Under the pieces are notes generated by a model that saw nothing but the letters and a program-made list of their open reading frames with translations, searched no databases and was not told where the DNA came from. 64,000 nt of DNA. It comes from a virus. A program made the translations under genes and the position numbers. The stretch lies in the IMG/VR virus record IMGVR_UViG_3300045988_148502, one strand, 5' to 3'. Position 1 is the stretch's first letter; every line of letters begins with the position of its first letter. Shown here piece by piece: positions 2,616-62,160 of this stretch.

Positions 2616-4586
2616 ATGAAAGCAATTCAGCTAAAATCAATCACGCTTCGCAACTGGCGTGGAGAAAAAGAAAGGACAACACAGTTCCATACAGATGGCA
2701 CTGTTACACGTATCTGTGGTCGTAACGGTCTCGGCAAGTCCAGGCACATGGATGCGTTCTGTTGGCTGCTTTTCGGCAAGGACAGCAAAGACCGTAAAGA
2801 CTTCAACTTGCGCACCACAGACGAAAAGGGCAATCCCCTACAGCATTGTGAATGCTCCGTAGAGGGAACATTAGTCGTTGATGGAACGGAAATTACCATC
2901 AAACGAGAGTATAAGGAGCAATGGGTCAAACCTCGTGGACAAGTAGAGGAAGTGTTCAAGGGGAATGTCACCGAATGCACATGGGACGGCGTACCTGTTC
3001 GTGTCAATGAGTATAAGGAACGTATAAATGCCGAAATCATTGATGAGAACCTTTTCAAGATGCTAACCAATACCGAGTATTTCCTATCGTTAAAACAAGA
3101 TGTTCAACGTGAAGTGTTAATGTCCATTGCCGGAGCCAAAACAGACAACGAATTGGCGCAGGGAAATGCAGAATTTACCGCTCTCGTAGACATGTTGAGT
3201 GGCAAATCATTGGCGGATTATCGTCGGCAGATTGCCGCAGAGAAAAAACGTCTAAAAATGCAAGCGGATGAAATCAAGCCACGTATCGACCAAACGGACA
3301 AGATGAAACCAGAAGCCGAGGATTGGAACTCATTGGAAGAAATGCTCACCGACAAAAAGAAAGAGCTGGAAGAAATAAACGAACTTCTGCATTCTGAAGA
3401 TGCTCGCAAGCAATCTGCCATCGATAAAAAAGCTGCGCTGAACCGTGAAAAACGGCAAATCGAACAGCAACAGAAGGATATTCTTGCCGCAGAAAGGAGA
3501 AGTCGTCAGGAGGAAGCCGATAAGCAGAACGAAACACGTAATGAAATCGAGAAAGAGTTGAAGAATATTCATTCCGAACGATCGGATTGCAATATAGACA
3601 TTACCCGTGCAAAAGAACGCATCAAGTATTTGAACGAAGAAATAACTAGAACAACAAGCAGACTTGAAGAATTACGTTCCGAATGGGCATCCATTCGTGC
3701 CACACAGTACACCGGTGATAATATCTGTCCTCATTGCGGCCAGCCTTTACCCGACAATATGATACAAGACGTTCTCCAAAAGTTTGAAGAATATAAACAA
3801 AACAGGCTCAAAGAGAATCAATCACGTGGAAAATCCCTGTCGACACAAGTCGAATCATACCGAGAGGAATTAAACAGGCGTAATGAAGAACTTGTAGAGC
3901 ATTCCAAAAAGATTACTGCCATTGACGAATGTATTGCAGGGCTGTATGATCGTCTGAAATCCACCCCGAAAGCAGCACCGTCCGCCATCAACGAAAACGA
4001 GCTGCCTGCGTATGCAGCAAACCTAAAACGTTTGGATGAGATAGAAAAAGAAATAGCAAATATCACATATACTCAGACAGATACCGAACTGTCCGAACGT
4101 GCCGAGTTGGTGAAATCTGCTATTAAGAACTTGGAAATCCAACTAAACAACCGTACCATTATCGCCAACTATGATAAAGAAATAGAGCGTCTTGAAAAGG
4201 AAGGTCGTGAACTCGCACAGAAGATAGCCGACATAGAGAAACGTGAATATATAGCTGCTAAGTTTGCCAAAGCTCGCATTGATGATTGTGAGAGCCGTTT
4301 GAACTCGCTGTTTGGCATGGTACACTGGAAACTTTTCGATACCACTCTTGACGGAAACGAATACGAAGTATGTATCCCTATAATTGATGGTGTGTCCTAT
4401 GGTACGTGCAATACAGCAAAGCAAGTGAACGCAGGTATTGACATCACCAACACATTGGCAAGGCATTACGAAGTCTATGCTCCAATGTTCATTGACCGTG
4501 CCGAAAGCGTGAATACATTCATTGCTTCCAACGCACAAATGATATTCTTGCAGGTTACAACAGACAGTCAACTAACAGTAAAATAA
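2616..4586 (+). CDS. Rad50/SbcC-like SMC-family recombination ATPase (656 aa)
   Basis: Walker A GRNGLGKS near the N-terminus. About 400 aa of coiled coil with a central CxxC hook (CPHCGQPLP). C-terminal Walker B/D-loop-like MFIDRAES. Confidence 0.75.
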   Translation: MKAIQLKSITLRNWRGEKERTTQFHTDGTVTRICGRNGLGKSRHMDAFCWLLFGKDSKDRKDFNLRTTDEKGNPLQHCECSVEGTLVVDGTEITIKREYKEQWVKPRGQVEEVFKGNVTECTWDGVPVRVNEYKERINAEIIDENLFKMLTNTEYFLSLKQDVQREVLMSIAGAKTDNELAQGNAEFTALVDMLSGKSLADYRRQIAAEKKRLKMQADEIKPRIDQTDKMKPEAEDWNSLEEMLTDKKKELEEINELLHSEDARKQSAIDKKAALNREKRQIEQQQKDILAAERRSRQEEADKQNETRNEIEKELKNIHSERSDCNIDITRAKERIKYLNEEITRTTSRLEELRSEWASIRATQYTGDNICPHCGQPLPDNMIQDVLQKFEEYKQNRLKENQSRGKSLSTQVESYREELNRRNEELVEHSKKITAIDECIAGLYDRLKSTPKAAPSAINENELPAYAANLKRLDEIEKEIANITYTQTDTELSERAELVKSAIKNLEIQLNNRTIIANYDKEIERLEKEGRELAQKIADIEKREYIAAKFAKARIDDCESRLNSLFGMVHWKLFDTTLDGNEYEVCIPIIDGVSYGTCNTAKQVNAGIDITNTLARHYEVYAPMFIDRAESVNTFIASNAQMIFLQVTTDSQLTVK

Positions 4587-22694: not shown

Positions 22695-22927
22695 ATTAAA
22701 GTTCCTTCTATTAGTTGTCCTATCATTGCTCCGGCTACTGTAAGACCAAAGTCAATCCAATCCCATCTACCGCCATGCACCTTGTCTTTATATTCCAAAG
22801 CACCTGCTGTCAAAACTCCGGCATACATTGCGGTAAACCAACCAAATGCAAAAATGCCGATAATCAGTCCTCCTATGAGGTGTTTCCACCTGTTACTCAT
22901 TCCGAGCCATTCAATCAACTTTTTCAT
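22682..22927 (-). CDS. holin candidate (81 aa, about 3 TM)
   Basis: Small and hydrophobic (LIGGLIIGIFAFGWFTAMYAGVLTAGAL; FGLTVAGAMIGQLI). Immediately upstream of the other lysis genes. Confidence 0.45.
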   Translation of the reverse strand: MKKLIEWLGMSNRWKHLIGGLIIGIFAFGWFTAMYAGVLTAGALEYKDKVHGGRWDWIDFGLTVAGAMIGQLIEGTLIWNN

Positions 22928-23417
22928 CGTTATTACTTTTTAAATTAAATACCGTCCAATCCACTTCATCCTTTTCTTTCCACCCTTCCTGAACAGTCTT
23001 TATCACATAGGCGCACGCTGCTTGGGAGAACGCAATAAAATCATCTGCATTCTCGAAAGTATGATAGATGGGCGTACCATCTTCCTGTTCATTGATTTTT
23101 AGAATAAGCGGATAAGGAATCTTTTCACTACGTTCTATAGCGGAAAAGTTTAATTGGTTTTCGGGTGAAAGATATACTGCTTTCCCGTTCCAGACAAAGC
23201 CGTTTATAATCTTTTCCTCCGTAGCCGTGTTTATAGCGGACACAACAAGTTCCTTGACTTCGGAAAGTGTGGGTTTATGGTCGAATGTATGCCGGTACTC
23301 CCAGCCATTCTCACTATTCTCATCATCTTTCCCGAAGCCATAAAACAGTATCCACTTGGAGCGTCCTGTACGTACAAGACAATCCTGCCGCTTCTTTGTG
23401 CCGTAAATCTTTTCCAT
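22911..23417 (-). CDS. hypothetical protein downstream of the DGR reverse transcriptase (168 aa)
   Basis: ORF track. Mixed alpha/beta-looking sequence, not Avd-like. Confidence 0.55.
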   Translation of the reverse strand: MEKIYGTKKRQDCLVRTGRSKWILFYGFGKDDENSENGWEYRHTFDHKPTLSEVKELVVSAINTATEEKIINGFVWNGKAVYLSPENQLNFSAIERSEKIPYPLILKINEQEDGTPIYHTFENADDFIAFSQAACAYVIKTVQEGWKEKDEVDWTVFNLKSNNDEKVD

Positions 23418-23484: not shown

Positions 23485-24975
23485 TCAGGTAAAATTGTAT
23501 TTTCGTTTGCCTCCGTCAAACATTTCACATTTGAGAACTGTTTCAAATGGAAAGCCGTCCTCAATATCGCTGATTTGGTCAAGAATACCTTTCATCTCAA
23601 CCGATGCAGTAAAGAACTTTCCCCATTCTTGAGTCCTGGGATTGCGGAACGATACCAGATAACGGTCTTCCCCCTCTTTGGTGTCTATTCCTGTTTCAAA
23701 ATCATGTATCTCAATTGGAATATTTACGATGTCGCTCAAACGCATAACCTTGCCGGGAAAGCGTTTTTTTCCATCTGCTGGAGTGTACGTAACACCCATT
23801 TCGGAAAATTTCTTCATGTTGTTCTTGGTAAGTATATAAAATAAATGTTTGCAATCTGCATGGCAGGCCATACCCTTGAATGAACCGATTATTTGCTGTC
23901 TCCGTTTCCGTGATTTAATCTTGGAAAGTTTTCGGGCTGCATTTACTTTTGTCCGTTTTCGTAGCAATGTATAGTCGCCGTAGTTGACAAAGCCAAGGGC
24001 ATCCATACCGGAGGATATGGGAGCCACTTTTTCGCTTGGTTTTATTGTCAGCCCTATTTGAGCTGCTTCATAGTGTAGTTTGTCCCGCAATTTCCACAAA
24101 TCACGTTTACTCTCACCGAGAATAAAGATGTCATCACAAAAACGGAAGTAATGTTTTGCACCATATTCATCAATCATCCGGTGATCAATATCATTATGGT
24201 AAAGGTTTCCAAAGAATTGTGAGGAACGCAGTCCTTTGCTTATGCCATGCTTCCCGTTGGGATATAGTGCTTTGACAAAATTTTCAAGAATAGGCAATAA
24301 GACAGGGTCTCCGACATATCGCCTGATTGTGGAGATTAATATATCATGGTCAATACTGTCATAATATCCTTTATAATCGCTTTGATAATAATAGTGTATA
24401 TTGGGGTTCTCTGCCAATGTATCCTGCACCTGATGGAACAGACCATGCGGTCCGCGTCCTTGTATGGATGCAGCCGTTGTTTCTATCAATAGGGGTGAAA
24501 GATGCTTTTCCAACGGCTCCATAATCGCATTGCTTCCAATACGCTCTATGACTGACGGGGCTTGCACAATTCTTACTTTCGGTCCGTCATCCACAGTAAA
24601 CGACTTGAGGTTCTTTATACGGAATGTGCCGTTACCTATCTGTTCTTTCAGCGCATCAAGTATCTTATGCTTGTTTTTTACATAACGGGCCATTCTTGGT
24701 GAACATTCAATGCCATCTATTACAGCTATCTCTCTTTGCCGATTTCCGCTTCGGGTATCTGCACTTCTCAGATTTGCCATGACACGCTTGAATGACCTTT
24801 CCAAATTCTCATCGGATATAATCTCCGGTATGAGATTATATAACGGATAACAGACCGCAGTTGCAGCTACGGCCGGTTGGAATAAATCGTATATATCGCT
24901 GACCGCCTTCCGGTCTCGTGGGGAGTGGTCCAACCTCTCCCCACATGTGGTTAAAGATATGTTCCGGCTTTCCAT
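23485..24975 (-). CDS. DGR reverse transcriptase (496 aa) with about 150-aa C-terminal extension
   Basis: RT motifs: YYQSDYKGYYDSIDH, GLRSSQFFGNLY (the SQ motif typical of DGR RTs) and RFCDDIFIL (YxDD-type catalytic box). Lies 103 nt downstream of the TR. Confidence 0.9.
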   Translation of the reverse strand: MESRNISLTTCGERLDHSPRDRKAVSDIYDLFQPAVAATAVCYPLYNLIPEIISDENLERSFKRVMANLRSADTRSGNRQREIAVIDGIECSPRMARYVKNKHKILDALKEQIGNGTFRIKNLKSFTVDDGPKVRIVQAPSVIERIGSNAIMEPLEKHLSPLLIETTAASIQGRGPHGLFHQVQDTLAENPNIHYYYQSDYKGYYDSIDHDILISTIRRYVGDPVLLPILENFVKALYPNGKHGISKGLRSSQFFGNLYHNDIDHRMIDEYGAKHYFRFCDDIFILGESKRDLWKLRDKLHYEAAQIGLTIKPSEKVAPISSGMDALGFVNYGDYTLLRKRTKVNAARKLSKIKSRKRRQQIIGSFKGMACHADCKHLFYILTKNNMKKFSEMGVTYTPADGKKRFPGKVMRLSDIVNIPIEIHDFETGIDTKEGEDRYLVSFRNPRTQEWGKFFTASVEMKGILDQISDIEDGFPFETVLKCEMFDGGKRKYNFT

Positions 24976-25002
24976 TAATAAATATATATTATCATGCTGT
25001 TG

Positions 25003-25022
25003 CCGAGGCTCGAATCCCTCGG
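25003..25022 (-). other. hairpin in the TR-RT spacer
   Basis: CCGAGG-CTCGAATC-CCTCGG: 6-bp GC-rich stem with an 8-nt loop, inside the 103-nt spacer that should be part of the DGR RNA. Confidence 0.35.
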
Positions 25023-25078
25023 AGAATGGCGGTGGTAATCTCGTACCTGTGCAGGGTCTCCGATTAATTTAACCAACA

Positions 25079-25194
25079 GAATTTCAGACGCGCCCCGTAG
25101 TTCGTGTTCGAGTTCGATGAAGCGTTGTTCGCGTTCGCATAAGCGAGACCGCTGTTCGCATTCGAGTTGTTGCCGGACCGCAAAACACAACGGC
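25079..25194 (-). repeat. DGR template repeat (TR), 116 nt
   Basis: Matches 26091-26206 at 99 of 116 positions. All 17 mismatches are A in the TR sense strand. Non-coding position between the antitoxin gene and the RT. Confidence 0.95.
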
Positions 25195-25221
25195 GCGAGG
25201 GATTGTCCGCCTTTTATTTTT

Positions 25222-25533
25222 TTAAAGAGTTATGCTTCCTAAACCGGAAATACTCAAAGACGCCTTCATACCCATGGCCTTAAACACTCGCGCAATGGTG
25301 GAAAGGGTCAGATTACGTCCGCTTTCTATCTTGGATACTTGTGAACGCTGTACACCGATTTTTTGTGCCAATTCCTCTTGGGTCATGTTTTGGGATTTAC
25401 GGGCTTTTTTTATGGCTTCCCCAATCAAAAATGATTGCAATTCAGCTTCATACTTATCCCTGTGCGGTGTACCGACCTCACCTATATGTTTATCCTTAAC
25501 TTCATCAAGGGTATAAAATTTAATTGCTTCCAT
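25222..25533 (-). CDS. XRE-family HTH antitoxin, HigA-like (103 aa)
   Basis: QNMTQEELAQKIGVQRSQVSKIESGRNLTLSTIARVFKAMG is a classical XRE HTH. Lies 4 nt downstream of the toxin gene. Confidence 0.75.
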   Translation of the reverse strand: MEAIKFYTLDEVKDKHIGEVGTPHRDKYEAELQSFLIGEAIKKARKSQNMTQEELAQKIGVQRSQVSKIESGRNLTLSTIARVFKAMGMKASLSISGLGSITL

Positions 25534-25537
25534 ATAC

Positions 25538-25882
25538 TTATTTTTTTGAGTTGAAATATAATATTCTGACGGCTTCCGCCTTGTTTATCTCTTTGCGTGG
25601 GGTCTTTTGTGTTTTCTTCACAAATCCATGCGTGGCAATGACCAACGTTTCCGCGTCGGTGTCCCAAAAAGCCAACAGACGATATTGAATACCTTTATAC
25701 AGGGTGCGAAACTCCCAAATGTCAGTATCATCTAATTTCTTGAATAAATCTTTGTCCATATAACCATTGGCTACCTTATCTACATTATAGATAATTTTAT
25801 CCTTAACGTCTTGGCGCAGAGTGTCAAGAAATGCATCGGCTTCACTCGACATTATTACTTTGAATCTCGTTTTCAATTCCAT
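25538..25882 (-). CDS. RelE/ParE-superfamily toxin, HigB/Gp49-like (114 aa)
   Basis: ...DIWEFRTLYKGIQYRLLAFWD...LVIATHGFVKKTQKTPRKEINKAE... matches the Gp49/HigB pattern. Toxin-first gene order. Confidence 0.7.
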   Translation of the reverse strand: MELKTRFKVIMSSEADAFLDTLRQDVKDKIIYNVDKVANGYMDKDLFKKLDDTDIWEFRTLYKGIQYRLLAFWDTDAETLVIATHGFVKKTQKTPRKEINKAEAVRILYFNSKK

Positions 25883-25902
25883 ATCTTATATCATTCACAA
25901 TG

Positions 25903-25910
25903 CAAATATA
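25903..25910 (-). promoter_or_regulatory. possible -7 box (TATATTTG on the - strand) for the toxin-antitoxin pair
   Basis: TAnnTTTG match about 20 nt upstream of the toxin ATG (25882). No convincing -33 TTTG. Confidence 0.25.
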
Positions 25911-26006
25911 GTGAAAATGTTCTATATATGGAACGTTTTACAGACAAAAATACAACCACATAAAAATTAGTTTCAAAAATCGACTCGCTTACGCGAGAAA
26001 AAGAAA

Positions 26007-26032
26007 GAGGGAGCAGCCTACGGCTCTCCCTC
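26007..26032 (-). terminator. hairpin plus T-tract downstream of the VR-bearing gene (terminator and/or DGR cis hairpin)
   Basis: 11-bp stem with one bulged C (26007-26018 / 26022-26032) and loop TAC. On the - strand it is followed by TTTCTTTTTCT. Lies 32 nt past the stop at 26064. A second small hairpin, CTCGC-TTAC-GCGAG, sits at 25984-25997. Confidence 0.55.
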
Positions 26033-26063
26033 CAACGCTTTTTTCGAAATCGCGAGGTCCGCT

Positions 26064-29000
26064 CTATTCAATTATAACGAATTTTCCGCGGAAGGCCAGA
26101 CGCGCCCCGCAGAGCGTGTCCGAGCTCGATGAAGCGAAGTACGCGCCCGCAAAAGCGAGACCGCTGTACGCATACGAGTTGTGGCCGGACCGCAAAACAC
26201 AACGGCCTCGGCTTCCACTTATCCAAAATCCTGCTGCATAATGTGTTACATACATACTTGTATCTCCCTTGTGTACTCTGCTGGGCAATACATCGCACTT
26301 GGCACCATGTACTATGCGCACGACACAATTTCCATTGGAAGCGTCAACTGTTTTAACAGTCCGTTCGGTTTTGTTTACGGGGTCATAAATATGCACTGTA
26401 TAATCTATTGGATATGAACTGTCGTTCTCCGTGCATTTTGCCTTGTAGAACGCTTCATAGCTCGGCACATTAAAAGCGATATAGTCCATCCATTCTGAAT
26501 CACAACCCACATAATGCTTCAATCCAAGTATGGAGTTGAGCGTATTGCCGGTATTATTGCTGTCAGCCATGCCGATGGAATCCAGTTTATTCAGAATGCT
26601 GTCATGTCCGCCATTGCCCACAACCGACTGTTCGTTGGTTGTTCCGCTCAAAGCCCACCATAGATTGCTAATCTCTTTATGCTGTTCGTAATCCTGCAAC
26701 TGATAGCCAACTCCACGTAAGCGGCAGATGTTTTGGAAATCCTTTGCCGTGTAATTCAAACCGCCGATAGGCATCTCAATAGGATTACCCTCACTGTCGT
26801 ATTTCCATTCGTTAGATGTAACGGACGTCCCGTTGCCTTTCTTCGAACGTATATCACCGGAAAGGCTGCGTGGCATCTTCAAACCGTCAACGGTAATAGG
26901 ATATACACCGACCAGACTGTCGTTGTCGCCAACCGTGTGTTCGGTCCATTCAGGTTCTATGGCTTCAATACTGCTGCTGTCTACAACAAGGCACTCTATG
27001 TCGCCAATGTCACGGAAAGAAGTGAAATAAAACCATTTTGCACCGTTAGGTATGTCACAGAACACATAATCACCGATGTTGAAGTCAAAATAGGTATGGC
27101 TTACAGACATGATGAACGTACTGAGCACACGGTTGTTTTCGTCAGTGAACACGCCTCCAAGCCGGGCATGGTTCAGACCGGGCCATCTTACCTGCTTCAT
27201 TCCTCTCACATCCATCTTGTAGCTGTTCGTATTGGATGCGGTGGTTATGACATCCTCGCCTATGACTTCACCGACAACGGCATCAATCGCATACACTCCG
27301 GTATTTTCCATATATAGCAATTCCGACAACAGGGATTTTCTGCTATGCAATGCAGTTGAGAGCGGTTCGGTCTCTGTTATAGAAGGGAAAAAATACTTTA
27401 CTTGGTTCTTGTAGTCGTTCACTCCCTTGTACCAATGGTGCGGAGCATGCCAGAATATATCAAAGCCCTCTCCGGCGGTGTCCGTTATGTCAAAGCTGCT
27501 GCCGTTTTTCAGGTAGTTGAAATCCGTATCGCTTAACTGCACGCCTTCCATCTGGTTTTTCTTCGTGTTGAATGAGCATTTATAGGCATGGCATCCTTTC
27601 TTGATGGCAAGGGTATGCCCGCTTGGAATATATGTGTTGCCATAATCCGCCCCCGTCTTATTTTCGGGATTGCTATACTTCTCACACGAATCATTGTCTA
27701 CCGTATCGCTGATTTTCACAATAGAGAACTGCGAATTATGAAGTTCAAGTTGGGGAAAATACCGGACAAGCTCTTCGATTTCGTTCTGCTCTATCAGTTC
27801 GACCAATATCCATCGTCCGGTTATTCCGCTACACTGTCCTTTTTCATCGTACGCATTACCATTCGCATCCAATCCTATAGCCCCACCGTTTTTTATGGAA
27901 CGAAGCATTTCAACACTCGCCGTAGCATTTACGTTGGGAATACGGACGGTTTTCAATTCACTTGCATTGACCACCTGTTCCAACAGAGTCATCGTATCAA
28001 TATACGGACATTCATTCACGAATATTTTTGTAACCTTACTGACACCACCAAGAGAAAGCCCGCCGGGATAAGTCAGATTAGGCAGATTGTTCAATACAAG
28101 TTCAGTGATAGTACCGGGAAGGGCAAGCGTACTTATCGGAGAAGTTTCAGCAAACGTTATTGCAGACAAAGAAGTATTATCGGCATGCACACTCTCCATT
28201 CGTGGACACTTTGAGCAATTGACGGTTATAATTTCCGTGTTTCGAATATCCAATGTAGTGAGAAACGGCATGTCTCCTAAATCCAAATTGGTAAGAAATC
28301 CGGTGTTTCCAGGCGACATTTTCCATTCCTTATGATTTTCACTACCGAGATACAGTTCCTGTAGCAACGACATTTTTGAAAGGGTATTCCCGAATTGAGG
28401 GTCAATACTTACTTCACTTAAATCTATCATGCTCATGCGGTCTGCCTGATATATGTACAGCATGATGTTTTCCCCATGCTGGAAATCTGTGAATGTACCG
28501 CTTTCCCCTGCCTTCAGAAAGATTCCCTGTGTAATGTTTCCACTATCGTTACCGATACCGAAATACCCACTCTTGGCCGCTTTAAATCTGATGACTGCAC
28601 CTTCTTTTGCACCGATACGTCCACCAATATAACCGCTTTCCGCCTTGAAATCCCCACAGCGGTAGTATCCGTCACGGATGCGCCAGCGTTGTTCTATAAA
28701 AGCGGGAAGAGATGTCAGCCCCAGTCCTTGCAATGCATAGAAATAGAGGTCGTTGTATCCTGTATATTTGATATACTTCCGTTCTCCGTCATAACTTGAA
28801 ACAACCTTAGGCCATTTTTTCATTATCTGTTTTACAAAATAATAGTCAGCTCCCTTGGGAGAAAACGGTCCGGCACCGATTCCAAGTGTATCGGGAAGCG
28901 AACGCATCGTATCTGCTATTGCAGGCAATGTAATTGTATTGGCATTTTGGTCTACATCCATAGTCTGCTGACCACGTATATCATTCCAAAGCACGCTTCC

Positions 29001-32000
29001 TCTTCCGGCGTATGCACTGTTTGTCAGATCACCGGGGTCAACTTCCGGGTCAATGGTTTGCCCGCCGTCATTATCCTTACCGTTGCAGGTATCACAGTCA
29101 TAAACTTTATTAAGGTACATTCTTCGCGCTTCCATACCGTTTGCTCCGCTATAAACACCGTCCTTGACGCTACAGCCGTCTTCAAGGAAGAACATCGGTT
29201 GCATGTTTTTCGCCTGTTGGTCGACAGCGGCAAGATAATCGGTGAAAAGATAATAGGAAACCAACGAGTATGGATTGATGTATTTCCACATCTGTGTCTT
29301 CCAAATTTCCTGCCATTTCCCTGCGAGCTCTTCCTTGGCATAATCGCAACTGTCGCAGAATTTCAGTACTTGGTACAGGTCGAACGGTACTTTCCGTCCC
29401 ATGGCCAGGTCTATCTGTAACTGGTCATCGTCAATCATGCACTCGAAGTAACGTGTCCACATCGGGTAGGTTTCCTGTCCGAGTTTGAGTTTCGTTACCC
29501 ACGAGGACTCTGCGGTAGTAGGTTCCATCATGTCTTCAACGCTGCCAACCCCTTGCCACCAGTTCATTCCATCATATGTGAGCAATTCGTAACCGCTTAC
29601 CGGATTAAGGACCTTGCCTGTAATCTTCCACTTGCCGTTTTCCTGCTTCATCTCTCCGGCTTGTCGCGTCCACTCTCCCCGTTCGTATGACATAAACCGG
29701 TAGTCCTGCCCGCAATATAGGGAAAGAAGATAAAGCTTTTCTTTATCGGTGGTAATATCATTCTTGAAACGTGTTTCTATCTGGTCGATGCTTTCGCCCT
29801 TTTGTCCGAAATATTCCACAAAATCTCCATAGTTCACGCAGCCTTTATTGTAACCGGGAGTATCTTTAAACCCAAGCGCAACCTGTTCTCCCTTATCCTC
29901 CTTCCAGTTCCCTTTTGCATGAAACCATGCGTCTGTCAAGCTTTCCTGTGTAGCACGGAATGCGGCAATGGGATGATTGGCTGTCGAGTGATTCATTTCC
30001 AATCCCTTTAATGATATGTCACTCTTTGCCCAAGTTCCATCAAATGAACGCTGTGCGGGAGTCAGGTAATTACTTCCGAGTGCACGAAATGTGGCGTTCA
30101 TCAAACCGCACACACCGCAGTCGTTGGCATTGGAGCTGTCGGAATAATCCACTTTCACCGTTATTATTTTTACCGGAATAGAATCTTCGCCTACACGGAC
30201 ATAACCTATTCTCATCAGTTTATATGATATTTGAGCATCTTCACTGTCATAATCCGGATAAATAGGAGTTACCTCCCAGCCATCATTCTTTTGAAGATAG
30301 AAACGGTCGTTCTTGATAGGCCGTTTTGCCGAAGTGGTTCCCTGCCTGCGCCATTGCACATTGATAGCCTTAAAACTTCTCCACGGCATAGTCGGATGAT
30401 AATAGAACAACGTACATTTGAACTTCTTGCTTGTATCAATATCACCGTCAAACGTGTCAAAAGTTTGCTGGTCTGACACGACCACATAATAAGGTATGCC
30501 TTTTGCGGAAAGGGCTTCTATTGTCGGACGATTCTGTGTATCAAGCACATTCTCCGCTTCATACTCCTGTATCATTGCTGAAGTATCAGTCAACTTGCAC
30601 AAATAGTTTCTAAAAGCTTGCGCCCATTCATAATGACTGTTGTAGGCAAGTACATAATACAAATACAAGTCTCCTTCCGTTCCGTCAAATGTTATGGTTT
30701 TTGAATTAAGGATAGCACCGCTATTACTGATATATCCTATACAGCCGACCTCTTCACCATTCAAATACAGTTTGATACAGGAATAATTGCTTCCCCCACG
30801 TGATACATAAATGGTAGATGGTTCTACAACTACGGCCATGGTAATTTTTTCACCTTGTCGGAATGAGCGTTCCACCAAAGCCGGTTGTCCGGTCTTGCAG
30901 TATATCGCAGCTTTATTTCCACAGACATAGAAACCGGCTCCGCTATCAGGGTCATAGCATTCTATCAGCTTTGAATCAGCTTCCTTGATATTTTTGGTGG
31001 CAAAGGCAAATTGGATGGCACATCCGCTCGTAGTTTCCACTGATGCGTTTCCAAAAGGATGGTAATCCAATATTTCAGCTGTTACATTTTCTGCAATACG
31101 CAAAGAACGCTCCTTAAGAAAGTCTACAAATCCGTTGCTTGACCAGTTTGCACCTCGTACATCCATTGTCACTCCGTTATGTGTGATAGTATGATCGCTC
31201 TCACTGTTGCTACGTGTAGAAAAATCATATCCGAACAAAGCACCGTCCTTGATCGCTATATCAATGGCACTCCCTTTTATCGTAACCTTGATTTCATTGG
31301 TGGATACACCGCCACTTTCGGCATGTACGGTAATACTTTGGCTTCCGTCCGTACTATATCCGCTTATCTGCTTGTTCACTGTAACCGTTTCGGCAATCAT
31401 AGCTTCCACAGCTGTAACTTTCTCCTCGCTGTAGAAAACATCTACATGCGTTTCAGTCTTGCCGGGAGTATACGCAGCCACCTCTACGGTAAGGTTGTCA
31501 TATAAACGTAACGTGCCGTTGTTCTTGTCATTGAACCTGATGGCGACGATGGGAGTATTACTGTTTTCGTCCACACACATGATAGCGGAATAGATGGTGT
31601 TTCCCTTTACTCCGGATTTCTTCTCCGTACCGTATATTCGTACAGGATATGCGCCATGCGAAAGTCTTTCTCCGCCACCGAATACATTTGTTGGATTGAC
31701 AGAGATGCCTTTGGTATAACTGTCGCTTACCGTTGCTTCACCAAGTTTCTTCCATTCTCCATTATAGAACATCTCCACTACTGCAAGAATGGATGAAGTG
31801 TTATTAGGGAATTTATAGAATTGTCCGATATTTTTTGCCGGACCACCTGCAACAAGGATAGTATCACTTGTGTAATTCAAAGCCATGGGTTGTTCTACGG
31901 TAATATCCACAGCCATAATGGTAATGGCTTTTTTCTTGGTATTTCCATCCGAATCTGTAGCTTGCACAAAGAAGCTTTTGCTGGCGGCACTGCTGAAATA

Positions 32001-34001
32001 ACTTGTGAAGTCAAGTTCAAACTTGTAATCGGTCGCACTTGCAGAGCCTACAGTGTTCATATCCTCACTGGATAATGTCAGTCCGGTGCTTGCATCAATA
32101 ATAGTGATGTTACGAATGACACCAAGCACCTCGTTACCATCAGGATAGCTGACACTACGCAAAGCTACATTGATTTTTATCTCTGAGCCGAATGCCATAA
32201 TAGGAGCGGCTTCCTCGAAGTAGATAGACAATGTACTATCCTCACTGGAGCCGCCACCACCTCCATTTTTGGGTATTTTAAGCACAATATCCTCTATCTG
32301 TCCGCCATTCAGATTGGTGGCTTTGTAGTAAATGTAGTCTTCATCACTTTCTTCATCAAATCCGCCGATAGCTTTCTCCTGCATTATGTATGCCCCGCCT
32401 GTGGAAAGGGCATCTTTTCCTCCCTCTGCCGGTTTGTCGGATGTTTCCACCTTGCTTCCGCCACTGCCGAATGCTACCCACGGTTTCAGATCATCAGGGC
32501 TGATGTCACTCTTATCGCGTGTGAACTGATAGGCAAGCCATACAGGTGCGCCATTTTTATCACTTTCCGCAGTCTTGAATGTAAGGACGATACCGCTTTT
32601 CAAATAAGAGAACCCGCTTTCTTTCTCAAGGTCAACAACAGCTTTTATGGCTGTTCCCAAAGTATATTCTCCATCTCCGCAAAGGTCGTTCACGTTGATG
32701 GTGTTGCCTACGTTTCCACCACCGGAAGTCCCGAAATCCGTCCAGTTGCTTTCTTTACTCCAATCAGAGGTATTTGTCCATTGTTTTGAAACCCATCCGG
32801 CTTCTGTAAGGAATATCAAGACAACACCCGGAATCTGCAAAGCAGAAGCATATTCAGAAGTCGCACACCTGTCAAGTGCTACGGAAAATGTTATCTCCCT
32901 ATCTGAAAGGTCAAACAGATGGTTGACATTCACAACGCTACGCGATACGACTTGTTTATTGAGTGAAAGTATTGCCTTCTTGTTTTCTTCGACCTGCTTC
33001 ATATCTTCCTGTAACTTCGCACCTTCATCACCGGGGAATGCAGTAGAGCTTGTATGTCCGAGAGCAAGGTCGGAGCCAATTGAAGTCAGTTGTTTACCGC
33101 TCCAACGATAACTTTTTCCATCTTCTTCACATAGAAAGACTTTGCCGGAAGAGGGTATTCGCCCGTTTGTACTTGCCGTACCGAAAACATCTGCATCCAA
33201 CCAGTTGTTATAATAAGTAGCAGTCTCGGATTCTCCGATTGTCGGAACGTATGCAAGCACAAAGCAACCATGTTCCTTATCATATACAACTTTACAACCC
33301 TCATCGTTGGAATTTTTGTCTATGGATTCATTTTTTACAGTAATGCCTACGGAAATGCCATAAAAATCTACCACGTCATCAATGTATCCGGGCAAATGTC
33401 GGCTCGGTACTTTCCCTTGTTCGTCAAGAGGGGCGATTCCTCCGTTTTCACCTTTTGATTCTTTGAAAGAGTTCAGTTGGCTTCCAACTTCATTCGCCTT
33501 GTTGTTTGCCTTGTTTGCGGTATCCTTGGTCGTGTTTACTTGGTCTTGCAACGAGTTGACACTATCACCAAGCGTGGTGAGGTTGGTGTCTTGCGCTTTG
33601 TTGCGGGCTTCTATATCCGTAATGTCGTCCTGCAGTTTGGTAATATCCTCTTGCAGTTTTTCTACGGCTTCGTTATACTGACCGCTGTCTATGGTCGGGT
33701 TGCCTCCACTCTGTCCGGTCGGGACCCATTCTCCGCCATCGCCCACATATATGGGAGCTGGTAAGGAAACACCCACAAGTGCCCACCATCCGTCATGTGG
33801 TAAAGGATAAGCCGCTTTCAGTTTTTCGATGGTCGTGAACAGTCCTTTGCTCACTCCCTTGATATTTTTTGCCTCAAGCCAGCCGTCCACCATTACGTTT
33901 CCTTTCAAGTGGGTCTTTCCCTGAACGGTCGCGTCACCACCTATCGCTGTATTGCGACCAACGGAGACATCACCGTCTATATGTTTTGATTCGTAACTCA
34001 T
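26064..34001 (-). CDS. giant tail-fibre / receptor-binding protein (2645 aa), DGR target
   Basis: The N-terminus has a beta-helix-like repeat, a coiled coil and GIAPLDEQGKVPSRHLP (a common phage-fibre motif, 33378-33450). LRR-like block around 27950-28320 (LTNLDLGDMPFLTTLDIRNTEI...). The C-terminal VR reads ...GRCVLRSGHNSYAYSGLAFAGAYFASSSSDTLCGARLAFRG, as in C-type-lectin-fold DGR targets. Confidence 0.85.
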   Translation of the reverse strand: MSYESKHIDGDVSVGRNTAIGGDATVQGKTHLKGNVMVDGWLEAKNIKGVSKGLFTTIEKLKAAYPLPHDGWWALVGVSLPAPIYVGDGGEWVPTGQSGGNPTIDSGQYNEAVEKLQEDITKLQDDITDIEARNKAQDTNLTTLGDSVNSLQDQVNTTKDTANKANNKANEVGSQLNSFKESKGENGGIAPLDEQGKVPSRHLPGYIDDVVDFYGISVGITVKNESIDKNSNDEGCKVVYDKEHGCFVLAYVPTIGESETATYYNNWLDADVFGTASTNGRIPSSGKVFLCEEDGKSYRWSGKQLTSIGSDLALGHTSSTAFPGDEGAKLQEDMKQVEENKKAILSLNKQVVSRSVVNVNHLFDLSDREITFSVALDRCATSEYASALQIPGVVLIFLTEAGWVSKQWTNTSDWSKESNWTDFGTSGGGNVGNTINVNDLCGDGEYTLGTAIKAVVDLEKESGFSYLKSGIVLTFKTAESDKNGAPVWLAYQFTRDKSDISPDDLKPWVAFGSGGSKVETSDKPAEGGKDALSTGGAYIMQEKAIGGFDEESDEDYIYYKATNLNGGQIEDIVLKIPKNGGGGGSSEDSTLSIYFEEAAPIMAFGSEIKINVALRSVSYPDGNEVLGVIRNITIIDASTGLTLSSEDMNTVGSASATDYKFELDFTSYFSSAASKSFFVQATDSDGNTKKKAITIMAVDITVEQPMALNYTSDTILVAGGPAKNIGQFYKFPNNTSSILAVVEMFYNGEWKKLGEATVSDSYTKGISVNPTNVFGGGERLSHGAYPVRIYGTEKKSGVKGNTIYSAIMCVDENSNTPIVAIRFNDKNNGTLRLYDNLTVEVAAYTPGKTETHVDVFYSEEKVTAVEAMIAETVTVNKQISGYSTDGSQSITVHAESGGVSTNEIKVTIKGSAIDIAIKDGALFGYDFSTRSNSESDHTITHNGVTMDVRGANWSSNGFVDFLKERSLRIAENVTAEILDYHPFGNASVETTSGCAIQFAFATKNIKEADSKLIECYDPDSGAGFYVCGNKAAIYCKTGQPALVERSFRQGEKITMAVVVEPSTIYVSRGGSNYSCIKLYLNGEEVGCIGYISNSGAILNSKTITFDGTEGDLYLYYVLAYNSHYEWAQAFRNYLCKLTDTSAMIQEYEAENVLDTQNRPTIEALSAKGIPYYVVVSDQQTFDTFDGDIDTSKKFKCTLFYYHPTMPWRSFKAINVQWRRQGTTSAKRPIKNDRFYLQKNDGWEVTPIYPDYDSEDAQISYKLMRIGYVRVGEDSIPVKIITVKVDYSDSSNANDCGVCGLMNATFRALGSNYLTPAQRSFDGTWAKSDISLKGLEMNHSTANHPIAAFRATQESLTDAWFHAKGNWKEDKGEQVALGFKDTPGYNKGCVNYGDFVEYFGQKGESIDQIETRFKNDITTDKEKLYLLSLYCGQDYRFMSYERGEWTRQAGEMKQENGKWKITGKVLNPVSGYELLTYDGMNWWQGVGSVEDMMEPTTAESSWVTKLKLGQETYPMWTRYFECMIDDDQLQIDLAMGRKVPFDLYQVLKFCDSCDYAKEELAGKWQEIWKTQMWKYINPYSLVSYYLFTDYLAAVDQQAKNMQPMFFLEDGCSVKDGVYSGANGMEARRMYLNKVYDCDTCNGKDNDGGQTIDPEVDPGDLTNSAYAGRGSVLWNDIRGQQTMDVDQNANTITLPAIADTMRSLPDTLGIGAGPFSPKGADYYFVKQIMKKWPKVVSSYDGERKYIKYTGYNDLYFYALQGLGLTSLPAFIEQRWRIRDGYYRCGDFKAESGYIGGRIGAKEGAVIRFKAAKSGYFGIGNDSGNITQGIFLKAGESGTFTDFQHGENIMLYIYQADRMSMIDLSEVSIDPQFGNTLSKMSLLQELYLGSENHKEWKMSPGNTGFLTNLDLGDMPFLTTLDIRNTEIITVNCSKCPRMESVHADNTSLSAITFAETSPISTLALPGTITELVLNNLPNLTYPGGLSLGGVSKVTKIFVNECPYIDTMTLLEQVVNASELKTVRIPNVNATASVEMLRSIKNGGAIGLDANGNAYDEKGQCSGITGRWILVELIEQNEIEELVRYFPQLELHNSQFSIVKISDTVDNDSCEKYSNPENKTGADYGNTYIPSGHTLAIKKGCHAYKCSFNTKKNQMEGVQLSDTDFNYLKNGSSFDITDTAGEGFDIFWHAPHHWYKGVNDYKNQVKYFFPSITETEPLSTALHSRKSLLSELLYMENTGVYAIDAVVGEVIGEDVITTASNTNSYKMDVRGMKQVRWPGLNHARLGGVFTDENNRVLSTFIMSVSHTYFDFNIGDYVFCDIPNGAKWFYFTSFRDIGDIECLVVDSSSIEAIEPEWTEHTVGDNDSLVGVYPITVDGLKMPRSLSGDIRSKKGNGTSVTSNEWKYDSEGNPIEMPIGGLNYTAKDFQNICRLRGVGYQLQDYEQHKEISNLWWALSGTTNEQSVVGNGGHDSILNKLDSIGMADSNNTGNTLNSILGLKHYVGCDSEWMDYIAFNVPSYEAFYKAKCTENDSSYPIDYTVHIYDPVNKTERTVKTVDASNGNCVVRIVHGAKCDVLPSRVHKGDTSMYVTHYAAGFWISGSRGRCVLRSGHNSYAYSGLAFAGAYFASSSSDTLCGARLAFRGKFVIIE
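26091..26206 (-). repeat. DGR variable repeat (VR), 116 nt, encoding the C-terminal ~39 residues of the fibre protein
   Basis: Counterpart of the TR. Lies in-frame at the extreme 3' end of ORF 26064-34001. Its 3' boundary (aaa to gcc) could be mutagenesis or IMH/IMH* divergence. Confidence 0.95.
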
Positions 34002-43275: not shown

Positions 43276-46200
43276 CTATTTACGGGTTTTGTTCATTTCT
43301 TCTATCATTTCCTTTTTGAGTTCGTTCAACTCGGCTTCAATATCCTTGCGTTCCTCGTCACTGATTGCTTCTTTTAATTCATTGTAGAGGTCGTCAATGT
43401 CTTCACGGTAATCCTCGAAGATTTCGTAACGCTCGTATTCGGGTGAATTGTAAAGGAAATCAATCTTTTCCGCATAGTCAAATATGTCGTTGTCGGTATC
43501 TTCTTCATAGTGCTTCAATCGGGATTTCAACCGGTCATGCTCCTCTTTCAATCGGAAATACTCATTGTTCACAGCCCTGTACTCGGTGCGTTCGTCCCCG
43601 GCTTTGACCAGCCTGTTTGCCAACAAGAAGCTGCGAGGGTCGTACTCACGGTTGCCTGTAACGGTTTCTACCATCTTGCTCAACTTGTCGATTGTTCCGA
43701 ACACGCCACCGAAATAACCGTTCAGCATATATTCAATCTTTGCCGGATTAAAGTCAATCGTTCCTTTTGTATATGGGTCTCCACCCGTAGCTTCATTCAT
43801 GGCATTGGCCAATCCGACAATGTATTTATTGGCACTCTTATACGCCTTTGTCCATTCGGGCATATCTTTGTTGTAAGGTGTGTCTTTATAAAGTGGCATA
43901 CCCGTCCAACTCTTTTCTGCAACGTAGGCTTCCCACAAGGGTTTGTAGGCACTCGGTACAAAGGCATTCAATCCTCCGCCGCCCTCCAAGAAATCAATAG
44001 GTAATATCTGTGTAGCCTGTCCTGTTATGGCTTCGGCAATTTCTCCGTCTGTAAGATGTTCCTTTCCGTTAAGGACGGAAATCATCAGTTCGCCCATACC
44101 GTAAACAGCCCTGTATTCTACCGGAAGAGGAATTGATACCCAACTGTTTCCTGCCCTGAAAAGAATATTGCTGCGCCTTACATATTCGGGAAGATTATAG
44201 TATGCGTTCTTGTCATCATCGTCATCATCATCGCCACCCAAGTAGGCAACAATGGCACCAAGAAGGAACATCGCCGCAATACCTGTAAAAGCTTTGGCAG
44301 GATGGCGTTTCATCTGTCGTCCAAAGTTTGCCGTACCTTGAATGGCTGCATTCCAAAACACATAGCCGCTACGACCAAGTCCCGATACCAATGCACTGGC
44401 ATTACCAGCCTTTGTCTGCCCTGTACTGTCATAGAATTTTGCTCCGCTGCCTTTCTTGTTGAAGTTTACGCTTATCTCCTTTGCATCATAGATGGCTCTG
44501 TCAATGCTCCGGCCCATTTCGCGTGATGTCATGAAAGCGGCAAAACGGGCGCAGTTCTCAACGGCTCGGTTGTACTCATCGAAACGTCCGCCCAACAAGT
44601 CCCATGCTTTTTTTACAGGAATCTTGCCGTTTGATTTTTTCAGTTCCCTGCGTATGTCGTTCTTATGTTGTTCAATGTCCCGGATATTGGCATAGCCTGT
44701 TTCTCCTCCGTTCATCATGAACTGATGAAACATCGCTTCCGTCTTGTTACTCATGTCAAGTGTCCCTTTGCGGTGCTTTGCCAAGAGTTGCTTTATCCTT
44801 ACAGGATTGGCATACATATAATTGCGATGAAAACGAAGTGCGTAGTTCGGGCTTTCCCTTATCCAAGTCATGGTGTTGGTGTATAGCATATCTCGCATGA
44901 AGTTCGATACGATGAAGTCCGGGTTGCGTGTGGTATAGAACGCACTCAACTGTCGGTTGATGTTTTCACCGGCACGGAGAATGGCCCCGATTGCCCCCGA
45001 CATATCGTTGTCGGGATTTGTCTGTCCGTTCAATGCTTGTGCCGCACGTGGATTGCCGTTTATGGTAATCACATAGTCCCTGCCGCCACGCTTCACTACA
45101 ATTTGGTGCTGCCTCATATCCCGGCTTTCCACAATACGGTAAGGAATATTCACGGTATCTTTGCCATGCTTGTACCGGTCAGGATATTGCTGTGCCAATG
45201 ACTCCATTTTAGTTTCAAAGTCCAGCATCTTCCGTTCCACCACTTCGGGAGTATCTGTACTGTCTATGTTGTCAGGAAACACTGGCTTCCATTCGTCGGC
45301 CACCGTATCGTATTCTACCCAAATGTCGCTCACACTGACAAGGTCGCTCGGATGGTTGAGGGCGAAATTAAGGAAACGCTGTTTTACCAATTTGTTCCGG
45401 TTGCCCTGCATGATAGCACCTTCTGCCATTGATTGCAGGTTGGCAAACGGGTCATCCGCTTTCGACCTGCGTCCTTCCGCTTTCTTGATAGGAGCATTGA
45501 ATGCACTTTGCTTGTGCGTCAGATATGCGTATGCTTCAGAACTGGTCTTTTCGTCAAAACCACGTAGCGGAATGTAAAAATCATACATATCTGAAATTTT
45601 ATCAAAGGTCGCTTTACTCATCATGCCACATTCGTATGACTTTGAAAGTATTGCTTTGCTCGCGGCATTGACTTTTTTCCAAAGGTCGGTAGTGTCGTGT
45701 GCCTGTTCGTAATCGTTAACCATTATCTGTGCTTCCGTTTCGGCATCAGCAACATTATCCATACCTGTAAGGGCTGTAAGTCCGGCATAGTCGGTTTGGT
45801 CTGCATCGGTTGCTCCGTTATTGATTGCTTCATTACGCATATATGTATTGCGTTCAAGGCCGTGTTTCGCCATCATGTAATCAGTCAATTCCTCACGCTC
45901 TGCCTCAGTCCTGGCAAGTTTGGCAACCTCATCAAGCATGGGCTTGAACAGGGTGTGGGCAAACGCATCGGCTTCGGCTTTGTTCACACTTGACAGACGG
46001 TTTTCTCCCAAGTATGCGTTTTCAAATCCGTCCACATCCTCAATGTTTGTTTCCTTGCCAAGGATTGCAGTCATGGCTTCTTTCAAGCCGAGCATACTGT
46101 CCTGTAATGCTTCCTGTGATTGGAACATACCGCTTTTTACACGCCTTTCATAACGGTCACGAGCCAACTCCCTTTCATGTATTTCCGGGTCACCGGTACG

Positions 46201-49200
46201 GTATAGTGCATCATCACTTTCTGCAACAGTCTGATGATGTGGGTCGGAAACCGCATAATTTCCGACTTTCAGTTCATACTGCTTTGCCACATCAGCGGCT
46301 TCTCCCAATATGTTTCTGTATCTGCCCGGTTCCGCAAGGTTCTCGTAACTGCGCCACAAGATGTAGCGAAGTTCGTTGTCCGATAGAGTAACCCCTCTGA
46401 AATCCTCAAAGCCTATCTTATGAAGCATATTCAAGAAGAAATCCTTTATCTGTTGCCACCAACTTGCGTTGATGTTCTCAAATTCAGTATCTTCTGCAAG
46501 CGAAGCAAGATATTCTTCGGTAGCCTTATGGAAATCCCAACCGTTTTTTGCAGCCATATCTACAATGCGTCTGCGTATGTTCTCATCGGCATTGTTGAAT
46601 ACATTATCAAGGAATGTATCAAAATGTTCTCCGAACAACTGGCGCAAACCATAGTGCGCCACAGCCTCATGCAGCAGTGTCTGTTCAACATCAAACGTAC
46701 TTGTATGGTTGGGAATAACAATGGTTATCTTCCCTGTACTCTTCGAGTAGAAGCCTTTTGCACGCTGCTTCTTTCCATCCAAGACGGAAGCATCAGTAAC
46801 AACCTCCACATTGTCAAGATGCAGTTTCTCTGCAAGGCTTTCCACACGTTCTGCCATTCTTTGGCGTTCACGCCGTGCAAATTCCCTCCGCTGCTTTGCC
46901 GTTCTCCTTGACTGACCGAGCAGCTTTGCCACTGGGTCATTCTCATAACTGACTTCATCATCGTTATATGCACCAATGCCGTTACGTTGGAGAATATCAG
47001 TTGTGTCATCCTTTACTTTTACGCCTAATTTGGCAAGTTCCTTGACAACTTCTATTATGCGCTCCTCGGGAATATCCGCACGCAACTTTCCTCGGTAAGG
47101 GTAGAAGTTTCCACCTGCGGCACGAAGCAAGGTTTTGTTCTCGTAGTAAACCGCACCGTCTTTCTTTGTCTTTGGAACAGTGAGGTAGAACATCTTTGCC
47201 CAACTGTTACCCATAATCTCGACCTTTCCATCGTGGCTTGTTATAGGAGTATAGTCTTTTATCTGTTGTAAACGACTGCTCAATGGAGCACCGCTCGTTT
47301 TCAGCATAGAAGCATTCCATTTGTCGGGCATTAAGATACCATCGTGAACATTACCGTCAATGTCTGTATAACTAATGAGTTGTCCAGGATAGCCTCCGTA
47401 TTCATCTTGTGTATCGGCTATAGCCTGCAAGATATTACCTGTCATAATGAAACCTGTCTTTCGTGTCTCACTTGGTATCTGACTATCCCAATTATCAAGT
47501 GTGGTGGCACGTGCAGCATCCCAATTATCATTGGTTACCTTGTCAATGCTTCGCAACGCATCAATCTGTGAAAGTTTAATTTCAATACGTCTGCGACCGT
47601 CAAGGGTAGCAAATACCGCAAGTGTTGTTGAGGCTGTAATCTTGCTATCCTTTGTTTTGTAGCCACAGAAGATAGCAGAAGTAGCAAAGTCGAAAATCAT
47701 TGACTCAAGGTTATCGGGCACAAGATAAGACTTGCCAACTTCAAACATTCTCAAGCGGCGCATCATCTGGTCGCTGTTCGTGTTGAGTCGCAAGATGTTG
47801 TCCTTATGCTTTGCCTCTACCTTTTCATTGGTCTCTGCGATAAAGTTATCTATGGCAACACGCTTTTCTTCATCGCTGCGTTTCTTCTGACCATTGATTT
47901 TTTCTGTCTGCTTGGCTATGTCGTCAATGGCTTTTGCCTTTGATTTCTCGTAGCGTTCATCTTCTGCAGCAATTCTAACTTCGTCCTCCTTGCGGATAGT
48001 TTCAATAACATTGTCAAGATAGGTATTCGGCTCAACACCCTTGTTTATCTGTTCTATTACCTTGCGTATCTCATCCGCTTTCATCGGCTTTCTCAACACA
48101 TCCATTTCCACCTTTTCAACAAATGAATTGCGAGCAAATGGATTGTTTCCATCAGGGTCTATGCCCTCAGAAGATATGCGTTTCTCGATAGTCGTTGCGC
48201 GGAGTGGCATTACAGTAATCTTTAAGTCGTTACTGCCGGTATCATTGAGATATTTAATCAATTCGTTATAACGCCTTACGACATCATCGTAAAACTCCTC
48301 CTGCTCTTTTGTTGCCAATAGAGCGACATAACCTGTAATCTTGCGTGCATCATCTTCTTGCGGTTTGTAATCTTCAAGTTCGCTTGCCTGCACACGACCA
48401 CCTCCGAGTCCTCCCTTTTTCAAAGGAGTACCCATTTTCTCGTATATATCTACATTATCACGAAGATACTCAACAACAACTTGACTACCATACTTGTTGA
48501 GTAAATCCGGTGCTTCCACATCATTACTTTCACTATCCTGTGAGGTCGTGGTATTAGCGTTCAACGATTTCAGTTTGGTGGAAAGCATCATCAGGAAACG
48601 GTTCTCGGCGGGTACAGGCAAACCGAGGTTGATGTAATAACCTCTATGCACCTGTCCTGTACGGTCTATACGTCCTATCATCTGCATATAGTCGTTAATA
48701 TCGCTCAGCGGCTGTGCTATAATCATAGAACGCTGACGTTGGTCGCTGAATTTCTCTGAAGCGTGCAAACTGATACCTGTTGATGCAGACTTGTTGAGGA
48801 TGAGGACATCAAGAACACCACTGTTGAACTCTCTCTGCATTTTCTTTTTGTCTTTGTCAGTTCTACGCTTGACAACGACACGTCCGTCATCGTTGCGCTC
48901 AACATACATATTACGTCCTGTCAATTCACCTACTTTGTATCCTTTCTTGTTCAGACGCTCGATAATGGCATCAAGTGGACTGATAAAGATATCGCTTGTG
49001 CTTTCACGAATGAAATCCTGCAACTCATAATATGCTTTTTCTCCTGCCGGACCTAATGCCTGTGGAGAATATCGCTCGTGGCGTTCGTTACCGTCCTCAT
49101 CTTTGACGGTGTACTGCATAACGGTGTCAAGTCCTTTCAGTAGGCTTGCACTGAATGTTGGCTCATCAATGATTTCTCCTGCGGCATAGTCCTTAATACT

Positions 49201-61523: not shown

Positions 61524-61654
61524 TCTATTACCCTCTACTTTAGATTGTCTTCATGTGTCAAGGGAACCCCAACCCGAAAAGGGGGCGATTTTACTGATTT
61601 GCTTTGAAGCGATGTTCGAGAGAATGTCGCTTTTTTCATGTCCAGACCGTAAAA

Positions 61655-62066: not shown

Positions 62067-62160
62067 TACCATAAAATAAATATATATATCTACTACATCT
62101 ACCGCGCGTGCGTGCGCACGTGAAGAAATTTTCGATTTTAGGGCAAGAATAAAAATTGAA

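Follow-up and report, generated by a model that had tools for sequence, protein, structure and literature searches.

We find that a 64,000-nucleotide stretch of viral DNA (IMG/VR record IMGVR_UViG_3300045988_148502; the whole stretch is hereafter called the window) carries a diversity-generating retroelement (DGR) that is very probably functional and recently active in a temperate Bacteroides phage. An earlier note on this DNA had interpreted the locus as a DGR, and that interpretation is borne out by a reverse transcriptase (RT) of the DGR clade, a template repeat (TR) upstream of it, a variable repeat (VR) at the 3′ end of a target gene, divergence between the two repeats that is specific to adenines, and a stop-free design of AAY codons. 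On the minus strand, the elements follow one another in the order target, Gp49/HigB-like toxin, helix-turn-helix (HTH) antitoxin-like gene, TR, a 103-nt spacer, RT, and an open reading frame (ORF) with similarity to DUF4376, with lysis genes further downstream. The host phage is a temperate human-gut Bacteroides phage. The element itself is already known, because earlier publications describe both the DGR of phage BS-TP4 and DGRs of the Hankyphage type.

The core of the evidence is the relationship between the two repeats. The TR (25079-25194) and VR (26091-26206), both read on the minus strand and each 116 nt long, differ at 17 positions when recounted from the sequence, as had been claimed. 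All 17 mismatches fall on the 28 TR adenines and none on any other base, a distribution with a hypergeometric p of 2e-13 under random placement. The count of 17 changed adenines stands, but its reading as mutagenesis does not hold for three of them: TR positions 110 to 112 read AAA in the TR and GCC in 28 of 28 VR variants, and because GCC is invariant in all 28 we assign this difference to a fixed 3′ boundary of the type that separates an initiation of mutagenic homing (IMH) sequence from its IMH* counterpart. This leaves 14 changes among 25 mutable adenines, all within a diversified tract of 74 nt (TR positions 23 to 96; VR 26110-26183). An independent repeat search recovers the pair as a 110-nt repeat, with the TR at 25085-25194 and the VR at 26097-26206, VR homology of the TR reaching weakly outward to 25079. 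The translations of both repeats quoted in the earlier note are present, including nine AAC codons and one AAT codon in the TR; its 25 mutable adenines lie in these 10 AAY codons and in AGC, TAT, TCA, ACG and TAC codons. With these 10 AAY and five other adenine-bearing codons, some 1.5e14 protein variants are possible and stop codons are unreachable. The VR supplies the last ~40 codons of the target gene. Its fixed 3′ end (26070-26109, minus strand), a G+C-rich run CGGGGCGCGTCTG followed by GCCTTCCGCGG in place of the TR flank AAATTCTGTTGG, is a candidate IMH by analogy with Bordetella phage BPP-1. A scan of the window with an adenine-masked TR returned no second VR.

Comparison with natural relatives extends this pattern from a single pair of repeats to a population. 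The window is a circular permutation of a nearly whole BS-TP4-type genome, 99.65% identical over 44.2 kb in a base-by-base comparison (156 differing positions, or 0.35%) and collinear elsewhere, and its DGR region is 99% identical to that of BS-TP4 (PQ571277.1; 64,274 bp; host B. salyersiae; from sewage). The two phages carry the same element, with the same target (gp14), an RT that is 99.4% identical and a toxin-antitoxin pair between VR and TR in both. Their TRs show 0 differences in 116 nt, whereas their 116-nt VRs differ at 14 positions, every one of them a TR adenine. To sample VRs more widely, we retrieved them from public contigs using as anchors the first 23 nt of the VR, which contain no TR adenine, and the 27 nt after the VR, with 93 free positions between them; because the anchors are free of TR adenines, the sampling is unbiased toward adenine sites. 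From nine viral contigs, 18 metagenomic ones, the window and BS-TP4 we obtained 28 distinct VRs. Among these, 289 of 700 adenine cells are substituted (41%) versus 11 of 1736 non-adenine cells (0.6%); by columns, 25 of 28 adenine positions vary versus nine of 65 non-adenine positions (Fisher p = 4e-12), and all 25 adenine columns of TR positions 23 to 96 are variable. Of 36 related TR copies, 33 have one and the same sequence, that of the window included. The earlier note had proposed reading VR polymorphism in a population; approximated here with independent assemblies, the polymorphism is essentially confined to TR adenines while the TR stays invariant. The adenine-only pattern also recurs in ~60 loci whose RTs are 73 to 100% identical to that of the window.

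It is improbable, in our judgment, that the DGR was active in the lineage and has since become inert in this genome, with the VR differences surviving as inherited history. Decayed cassettes do exist among the relatives. In BKO1-TP3 (L013, 13750-13900), L031 and L079 (about 3780-3910), a single hybrid repeat is present and the VR-TR interval is deleted; the target closes on TR-type sequence without mutations, after which come the 3′ flank proper to the TR and then the RT. Such collapsed loci are the expected product of homologous recombination between VR and TR, with no separate template left, and since some relatives have lost their VR/TR pair in this way, the family includes inactive members. 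Three further relatives (L081, L083 and L086) carry TRs with fewer adenines. In two independent contigs (one listed twice, as L011 and L021, and the other L189), the VR equals the TR at all 25 mutable adenines while keeping the VR-type GCC boundary; these are either naive or reset VRs or the outcome of homing without mutagenesis. The evidence for activity comes from assemblies rather than reads, and current activity of the window's own DGR is deduced from between-genome comparisons. The earlier note had called the DGR complete, which holds for target, VR, TR and RT but not for the accessory protein Avd: none of the flanking ORFs has an Avd match in Pfam, and a phmmer search with BPP-1 Avd against the 536 ORFs of the window was empty. 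Avd is essential in the Bordetella system. Attempts to recognize a known binding fold at the target C-terminus were equally unproductive, in that a profile search for a C-type lectin fold gave only chance matches among Protein Data Bank (PDB) sequences, hhalign against BPP-1 Mtd returned a probability of 0.6%, and the last 349 aa, when modeled with AlphaFold2 from an 18-sequence alignment, reached a mean predicted local distance difference test (pLDDT) score of 42, too poor for a fold call.

All of these points weigh against a functional, recently active element. On the other side, the RT ORF is intact with all of its family-invariant residues, the TR matches the family consensus and the structured RNA of the spacer is full-length. 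Fourteen adenine-site differences separate the VR from that of a genome only 0.35% divergent, and for this reason we place the last homing event very recently. The absence of Avd is normal for this Bacteroides DGR class. We continue with the reading of a functional, recently active DGR.

The RT of 496 aa (23485-24975, minus strand) has a Pfam RVT_1 match, with a core at residues 46 to 382 (23830-24840). Its SQ motif GLRSSQFFGNLY and FCDD box and its start 103 nt past the TR are all present in the sequence, as the earlier note had described. The catalytic aspartate pair, whose loss would have spoken for an inactive enzyme, is present as D281/D282; these two residues, D200, and S252-Q253 within GLRSSQ (the [LIV]GxxxSQ motif) are invariant in 27 relatives. 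We assign only a very slight probability to the alternative that this is the RT of some other retroelement or defense system (a group II intron, a retron, or a DRT/Abi system) beside an ordinary duplication. Matches in NCBIfam and PADLOC are indeed generic only (group II intron RT, Drt3a, UG4), those in NCBIfam all falling below curated cut-offs; on the other side, neither resource returned a DGR-specific family. Among solved structures, 8ub7, the RT of the Bordetella DGR, comes closest in sequence (E = 4e-21), and a Foldseek search with the AlphaFold model (pLDDT 75) places the same structure on top (E = 1.5e-16). Aligned by hhalign, the RT family profile covers residues 6 to 319 of the Bordetella enzyme (bRT) with 99.4% probability. 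Beside the RT we saw neither RNA domains of an intron nor a retron msr/msd or effector genes, and duplication fails to explain 289 adenine versus 11 other substitutions opposite an invariant second copy. A defense-system role for the RT was considered and rejected, PADLOC having given generic RT matches only.

Just as improbable is an origin of the adenine-biased differences in misassembly or missequencing of near-identical repeats, an idea to which possibly chimeric assemblies with TR variants that share changes with their own VR (L178, L179 and L018) and at least six contigs that end inside the VR lend some color, but the same pattern is seen in the genome of an isolate and, with a different VR each time, in dozens of independent assemblies, and assembly error would not select adenines.

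The contigs just named merit a description of their own. TR variants occur in the three assemblies L178, L179 and L018; in the first two, the changes match those of the contig's own VR, one of them in L178 (G58T) lying outside the adenines, and the VR of L018 was not recovered. These variants could reflect transfer of TR polymorphism from TR to VR, conversion of TR by VR, or low-coverage chimeric assembly. The viral contigs that stop inside the VR, at least six in number (L014 and L016 to L020), end 1132 to 1209 nt upstream of the RT start, consistent with assemblies broken at a hypervariable or repeated segment.

In the gap from TR to RT lies a structured RNA. The Rfam RT-3 family (RF03068) matches over its full length at 24902-25065 on the minus strand, a segment that takes in the spacer after the TR and reaches 74 nt into the RT ORF. 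It scores 74.5 bits versus a gathering score of 40.5 (E = 1e-17), and RT-3 lies in the same position in 12 of 12 related loci tested. The RT-3 observation extends to loci L013, L026, L031, L045, L050, L054, L061, L064, L073, L079, L090, L092, L096, L097, L100, L125 and L172. Hankyphage-type loci score 112 to 145 bits for RT-3, and the BPP-1 spacer matches a separate Rfam family, Phage_DGR (RF03022). RT-3 looks like the counterpart of that BPP-1 spacer RNA, by analogy with which it may take part in priming. The motifs RT-1 to RT-19 were described as lying near RT genes, RT-10 alone being tied to a DGR (Weinberg et al., PMC5737381); the same authors speculated that other RT motifs act in DGRs and left the function of RT-3 open (PMC5737381). 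The overlap of motif and gene may have a consequence for the RT itself. Its residues 1 to 39 are predicted to be disordered, and the DNA for the first 25 of these belongs to the RT-3 motif. In-frame start codons are found only inside the motif, with no ATG, GTG or TTG between it and the conserved core (24861-24975, minus strand, as read from the sequence). Since the start codons sit within the motif, the RT-3 structure could affect translation of the RT. Some relatives, namely those with 447-aa RT forms and Hankyphage, begin the RT after the motif.

The RT of the window also carries a feature that is absent from Bordetella bRT, a C-terminal domain of ~110 aa (residues 384 to 496; 23488-23826, minus strand) that matches phrog_19665 (E = 1.5e-19). 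In the family alignment it is conserved more strongly than the RT core, and searches for it returned no Pfam family and no match among PDB sequences. It was found in only 182 representative clusters of 1.84 billion, and all of the full-length carriers inspected (five, plus ORFs at related loci) are DGR-type RTs with the domain at the C-terminus. The predicted order of elements is β-β-β-α-β-β, and this order possibly resembles an oligonucleotide/oligosaccharide-binding (OB) fold, which would make the domain a possible binder of nucleic acid. Apparent stand-alone copies of the domain (matches of ~105 aa) were dropped from consideration; the one that was checked, P0157, is an internal-methionine fragment of a fused RT, and a locus search with a further candidate, P0195, gave no match.

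Directly after the RT stands an ORF of 168 aa (22911-23417, minus strand) with a weak Pfam match to DUF4376 and a match to phrog_19239 (E = 6e-32). By BLASTP it is similar (E = 1e-16) to the ORF that follows the RT in Hankyphage (L194, 10045-10530), which its authors labeled "Avd" and for which we found no similarity to BPP-1 Avd. The DUF4376 protein could be a true accessory factor or a tail-fiber-associated gene.

The diversified gene (26064-34001, minus strand) lies in the structural module and encodes a target protein of 2645 aa. The protein is orthologous to gp14 of BS-TP4, and its sole PHROG match, phrog_14959, is full-length and to an uncharacterized family; searches of the full-length protein against PDB and Pfam gave nothing useful. 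The VR encodes residues ~2599 to 2637. Aligned over 96% of their length, the last 349 aa share ~26% identity with the C-terminus of the Hankyphage target that bears the VR, which has been described as a C-type lectin domain (Benler et al. 2018). By that analogy the VR domain may adopt a C-type lectin fold, which we leave as an inference because the model and profile attempts described above failed. Some 30 nt after the target stop codon, a G+C-rich hairpin with a T run (26007-26032, minus strand; folded as DNA, the region as a whole being no more stable than shuffles, z = -1.2) is probably the terminator of the target gene, and it may possibly have a role like that of the cruciform downstream of the VR in BPP-1.

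The interval between VR and TR is occupied by a pair of small genes. The first encodes a Gp49/HigB-like toxin of the RelE fold (25538-25882, minus strand; PF05973, E = 5e-18; phrog_2523), whose BS-TP4 orthologue is annotated as "Addiction module toxin RelE." The second encodes an XRE/HTH_3 antitoxin-like regulator (25222-25533, minus strand; PF01381, E = 2e-15) that ends 27 nt before the TR; NCBIfam antitoxin families match it, all below cut-off. With the toxin gene first and the HTH gene 4 nt later, the two have the layout of a type II toxin-antitoxin pair, and from their sequences they qualify as a HigB/HigA-like pair. Relatives fall into spacing classes with ~1010, 984 and 954 nt from VR to TR, and into a 347-nt class with no gene in the interval. 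Toxin-plus-HTH pairs, divergent in sequence from one another, are found in the one locus inspected for each of the longer classes (L026, L061 and L064), in contrast to L050. We speculate that a toxin-antitoxin pair in this deletable interval could select against VR/TR collapse. Equally speculatively, its operon could provide a promoter for TR and RT, since only 27 nt and no hairpin lie between the antitoxin stop codon and the TR. Bacteroides promoters differ from the sigma-70 consensus, and for that reason a scan of the region for sigma-70 promoters and terminators was uninformative.

By analogy with the Bordetella and Hankyphage systems, these parts suggest how the element would work. Transcription would yield an RNA that spans the TR and the RT-3 spacer downstream of it, probably from the toxin-antitoxin operon just upstream, a start made probable by the lack of an intervening terminator. 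The 496-aa RT would recognize this TR/RT-3 RNA and copy the TR into cDNA, placing random bases opposite template adenines. The cDNA would then replace the VR at the 3′ end of the tail-associated gene, with the fixed G+C-rich end of the VR setting the boundary, and the resulting variants would alter a ligand-binding surface, presumably for recognition of a host or a surface. How priming would proceed where Avd is absent can be answered only tentatively. We consider it possible, though rather less than an even bet, that the RT C-terminal domain (possibly OB-like) and the RT-3 RNA have together taken over the role of Avd in priming, with the DUF4376 protein, a constant neighbor of the RT, perhaps contributing, and that the toxin-antitoxin pair guards against VR/TR collapse or drives or regulates TR-RT transcription.

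Hankyphage (Bacteroides phage p00) offers the closest comparison beyond BS-TP4-type phages. Homology extends across the entire cassette: over residues 48 to 496, C-terminal domain included, the RTs share 41% identity; TR and RT are again separated by RT-3 RNA; a DUF4376 ORF comes after the RT; the VR-bearing target exceeds 2000 aa; the repeats are ~116 nt with AAY codons; and there is no true Avd homologue. The Hankyphage cassette differs in sitting on a Mu-like backbone of 43 kb, whereas the window is a 64-kb integrase phage, in having a 64-aa ORF alone between VR and TR with no toxin-antitoxin pair, and in starting its RT past the RT-3 motif, while in the window the start codons lie inside it. 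Experiments in culture have demonstrated that the Hankyphage DGR is active and specific for adenines (PMC12135933).

The DGR of BPP-1 (mtd-avd-TR-brt) is more distant. It shares with the window the order of target with VR, TR, structured spacer and RT, adenine-specific mutagenesis, a VR at the C-terminus of a tail protein, a fixed VR 3′ end that is rich in G+C, and an RT core for which bRT residues 6 to 319 can be aligned. Avd, however, is present in BPP-1 and absent from the window; the spacer RNA is RF03022 rather than RT-3; bRT lacks the extra domain of ~110 aa; and the target has 381 rather than 2645 aa, with no detectable similarity between the window's target and Mtd.

The window also fits a published class. 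DGRs of the Avd-less "Lineage 3/3A," with VR class CLec3 and target category f1, are restricted to Bacteroides and relatives and have targets of ~2000 aa that align along their length (Wu et al. 2018, PMC5758913); the "domain group 3" of Macadangdang et al. (bioRxiv 2024.11.15.621889) is named alongside this lineage. The same survey found 29% of DGRs to be without an accessory gene and ~20% of DGR RTs to carry up to 150 aa of extra, unexplained sequence at the C-terminus (Wu et al. 2018, PMC5758913). Judged by the published description, the window fits in its lack of avd, its Bacteroides host, its very long target and its RT extension; it differs in that the CotH and Laminin_G_3 motifs reported for the class were undetected by Pfam in the window.

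The BS-TP4 DGR was reported in Gut Microbes in 2025, where it was found with myDGR and gp14 was shown as its target (PMC12694917). The passages of that paper that were searched mention neither RT-3 nor Avd and are silent on the C-terminal domain of the RT (PMC12694917). Among the descriptions we consulted, we did not find the placement of RT-3 RNA in these DGRs, a link between RT-3 and DGRs, the conserved ~110-aa domain at the RT C-terminus as a possible stand-in for Avd, the toxin-antitoxin genes carried between VR and TR, or the collapsed variants, and we put all of these forward as leads, not results.

Several observations concern the phage rather than its DGR. The sole block of the window not common to BS-TP4 is a different immunity region at 431-1536, in which an HTH repressor-like ORF (1065-1439) and a lipoprotein-like ORF (421-1068) replace BS-TP4 gp58/gp59; the swapped block suggests a heteroimmune variant. 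A single ORF of 5391 aa (43276-59451, minus strand), exceptionally large for a 64-kb phage, lies beside the portal gene and is the orthologue of BS-TP4 gp3, annotated as "hypothetical protein." At 61654-62082, adjoining the integrase gene (62229-63710, minus strand), stand at least eight copies of a unit built on the palindrome TTTCTTCGGAAGAAA, an array that probably represents the integrase or excisionase arm sites of the phage attachment site (attP). The VR-flank pattern is also matched in human-gut metagenome contigs of 124 kb to 2.5 Mb (L182, L183, L186, L188 and L189), and its presence in such very long contigs indicates that this phage type also occurs integrated in bacterial chromosomes. 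The BS-TP4 paper, for its part, reports no prophage copies of BS-TP4 in NCBI genomes and detection of the phage in 31% of 930 viromes (PMC12694917).

This phage type is thus common in human guts, and natural DGR activity within it can be read from public assemblies, in which near-identical phages differ almost only at the TR adenines of one 74-nt tract. To our knowledge, the Bordetella system, in which Avd is essential, is the only DGR to have been dissected biochemically. As the element itself is already known, the residual value of this example lies in mechanism: it belongs to an abundant Avd-less class for which the C-terminal domain of the RT, RT-3 and the DUF4376 neighbor are candidate replacements, and its relatives also reveal a route of DGR decay through recombination between VR and TR.

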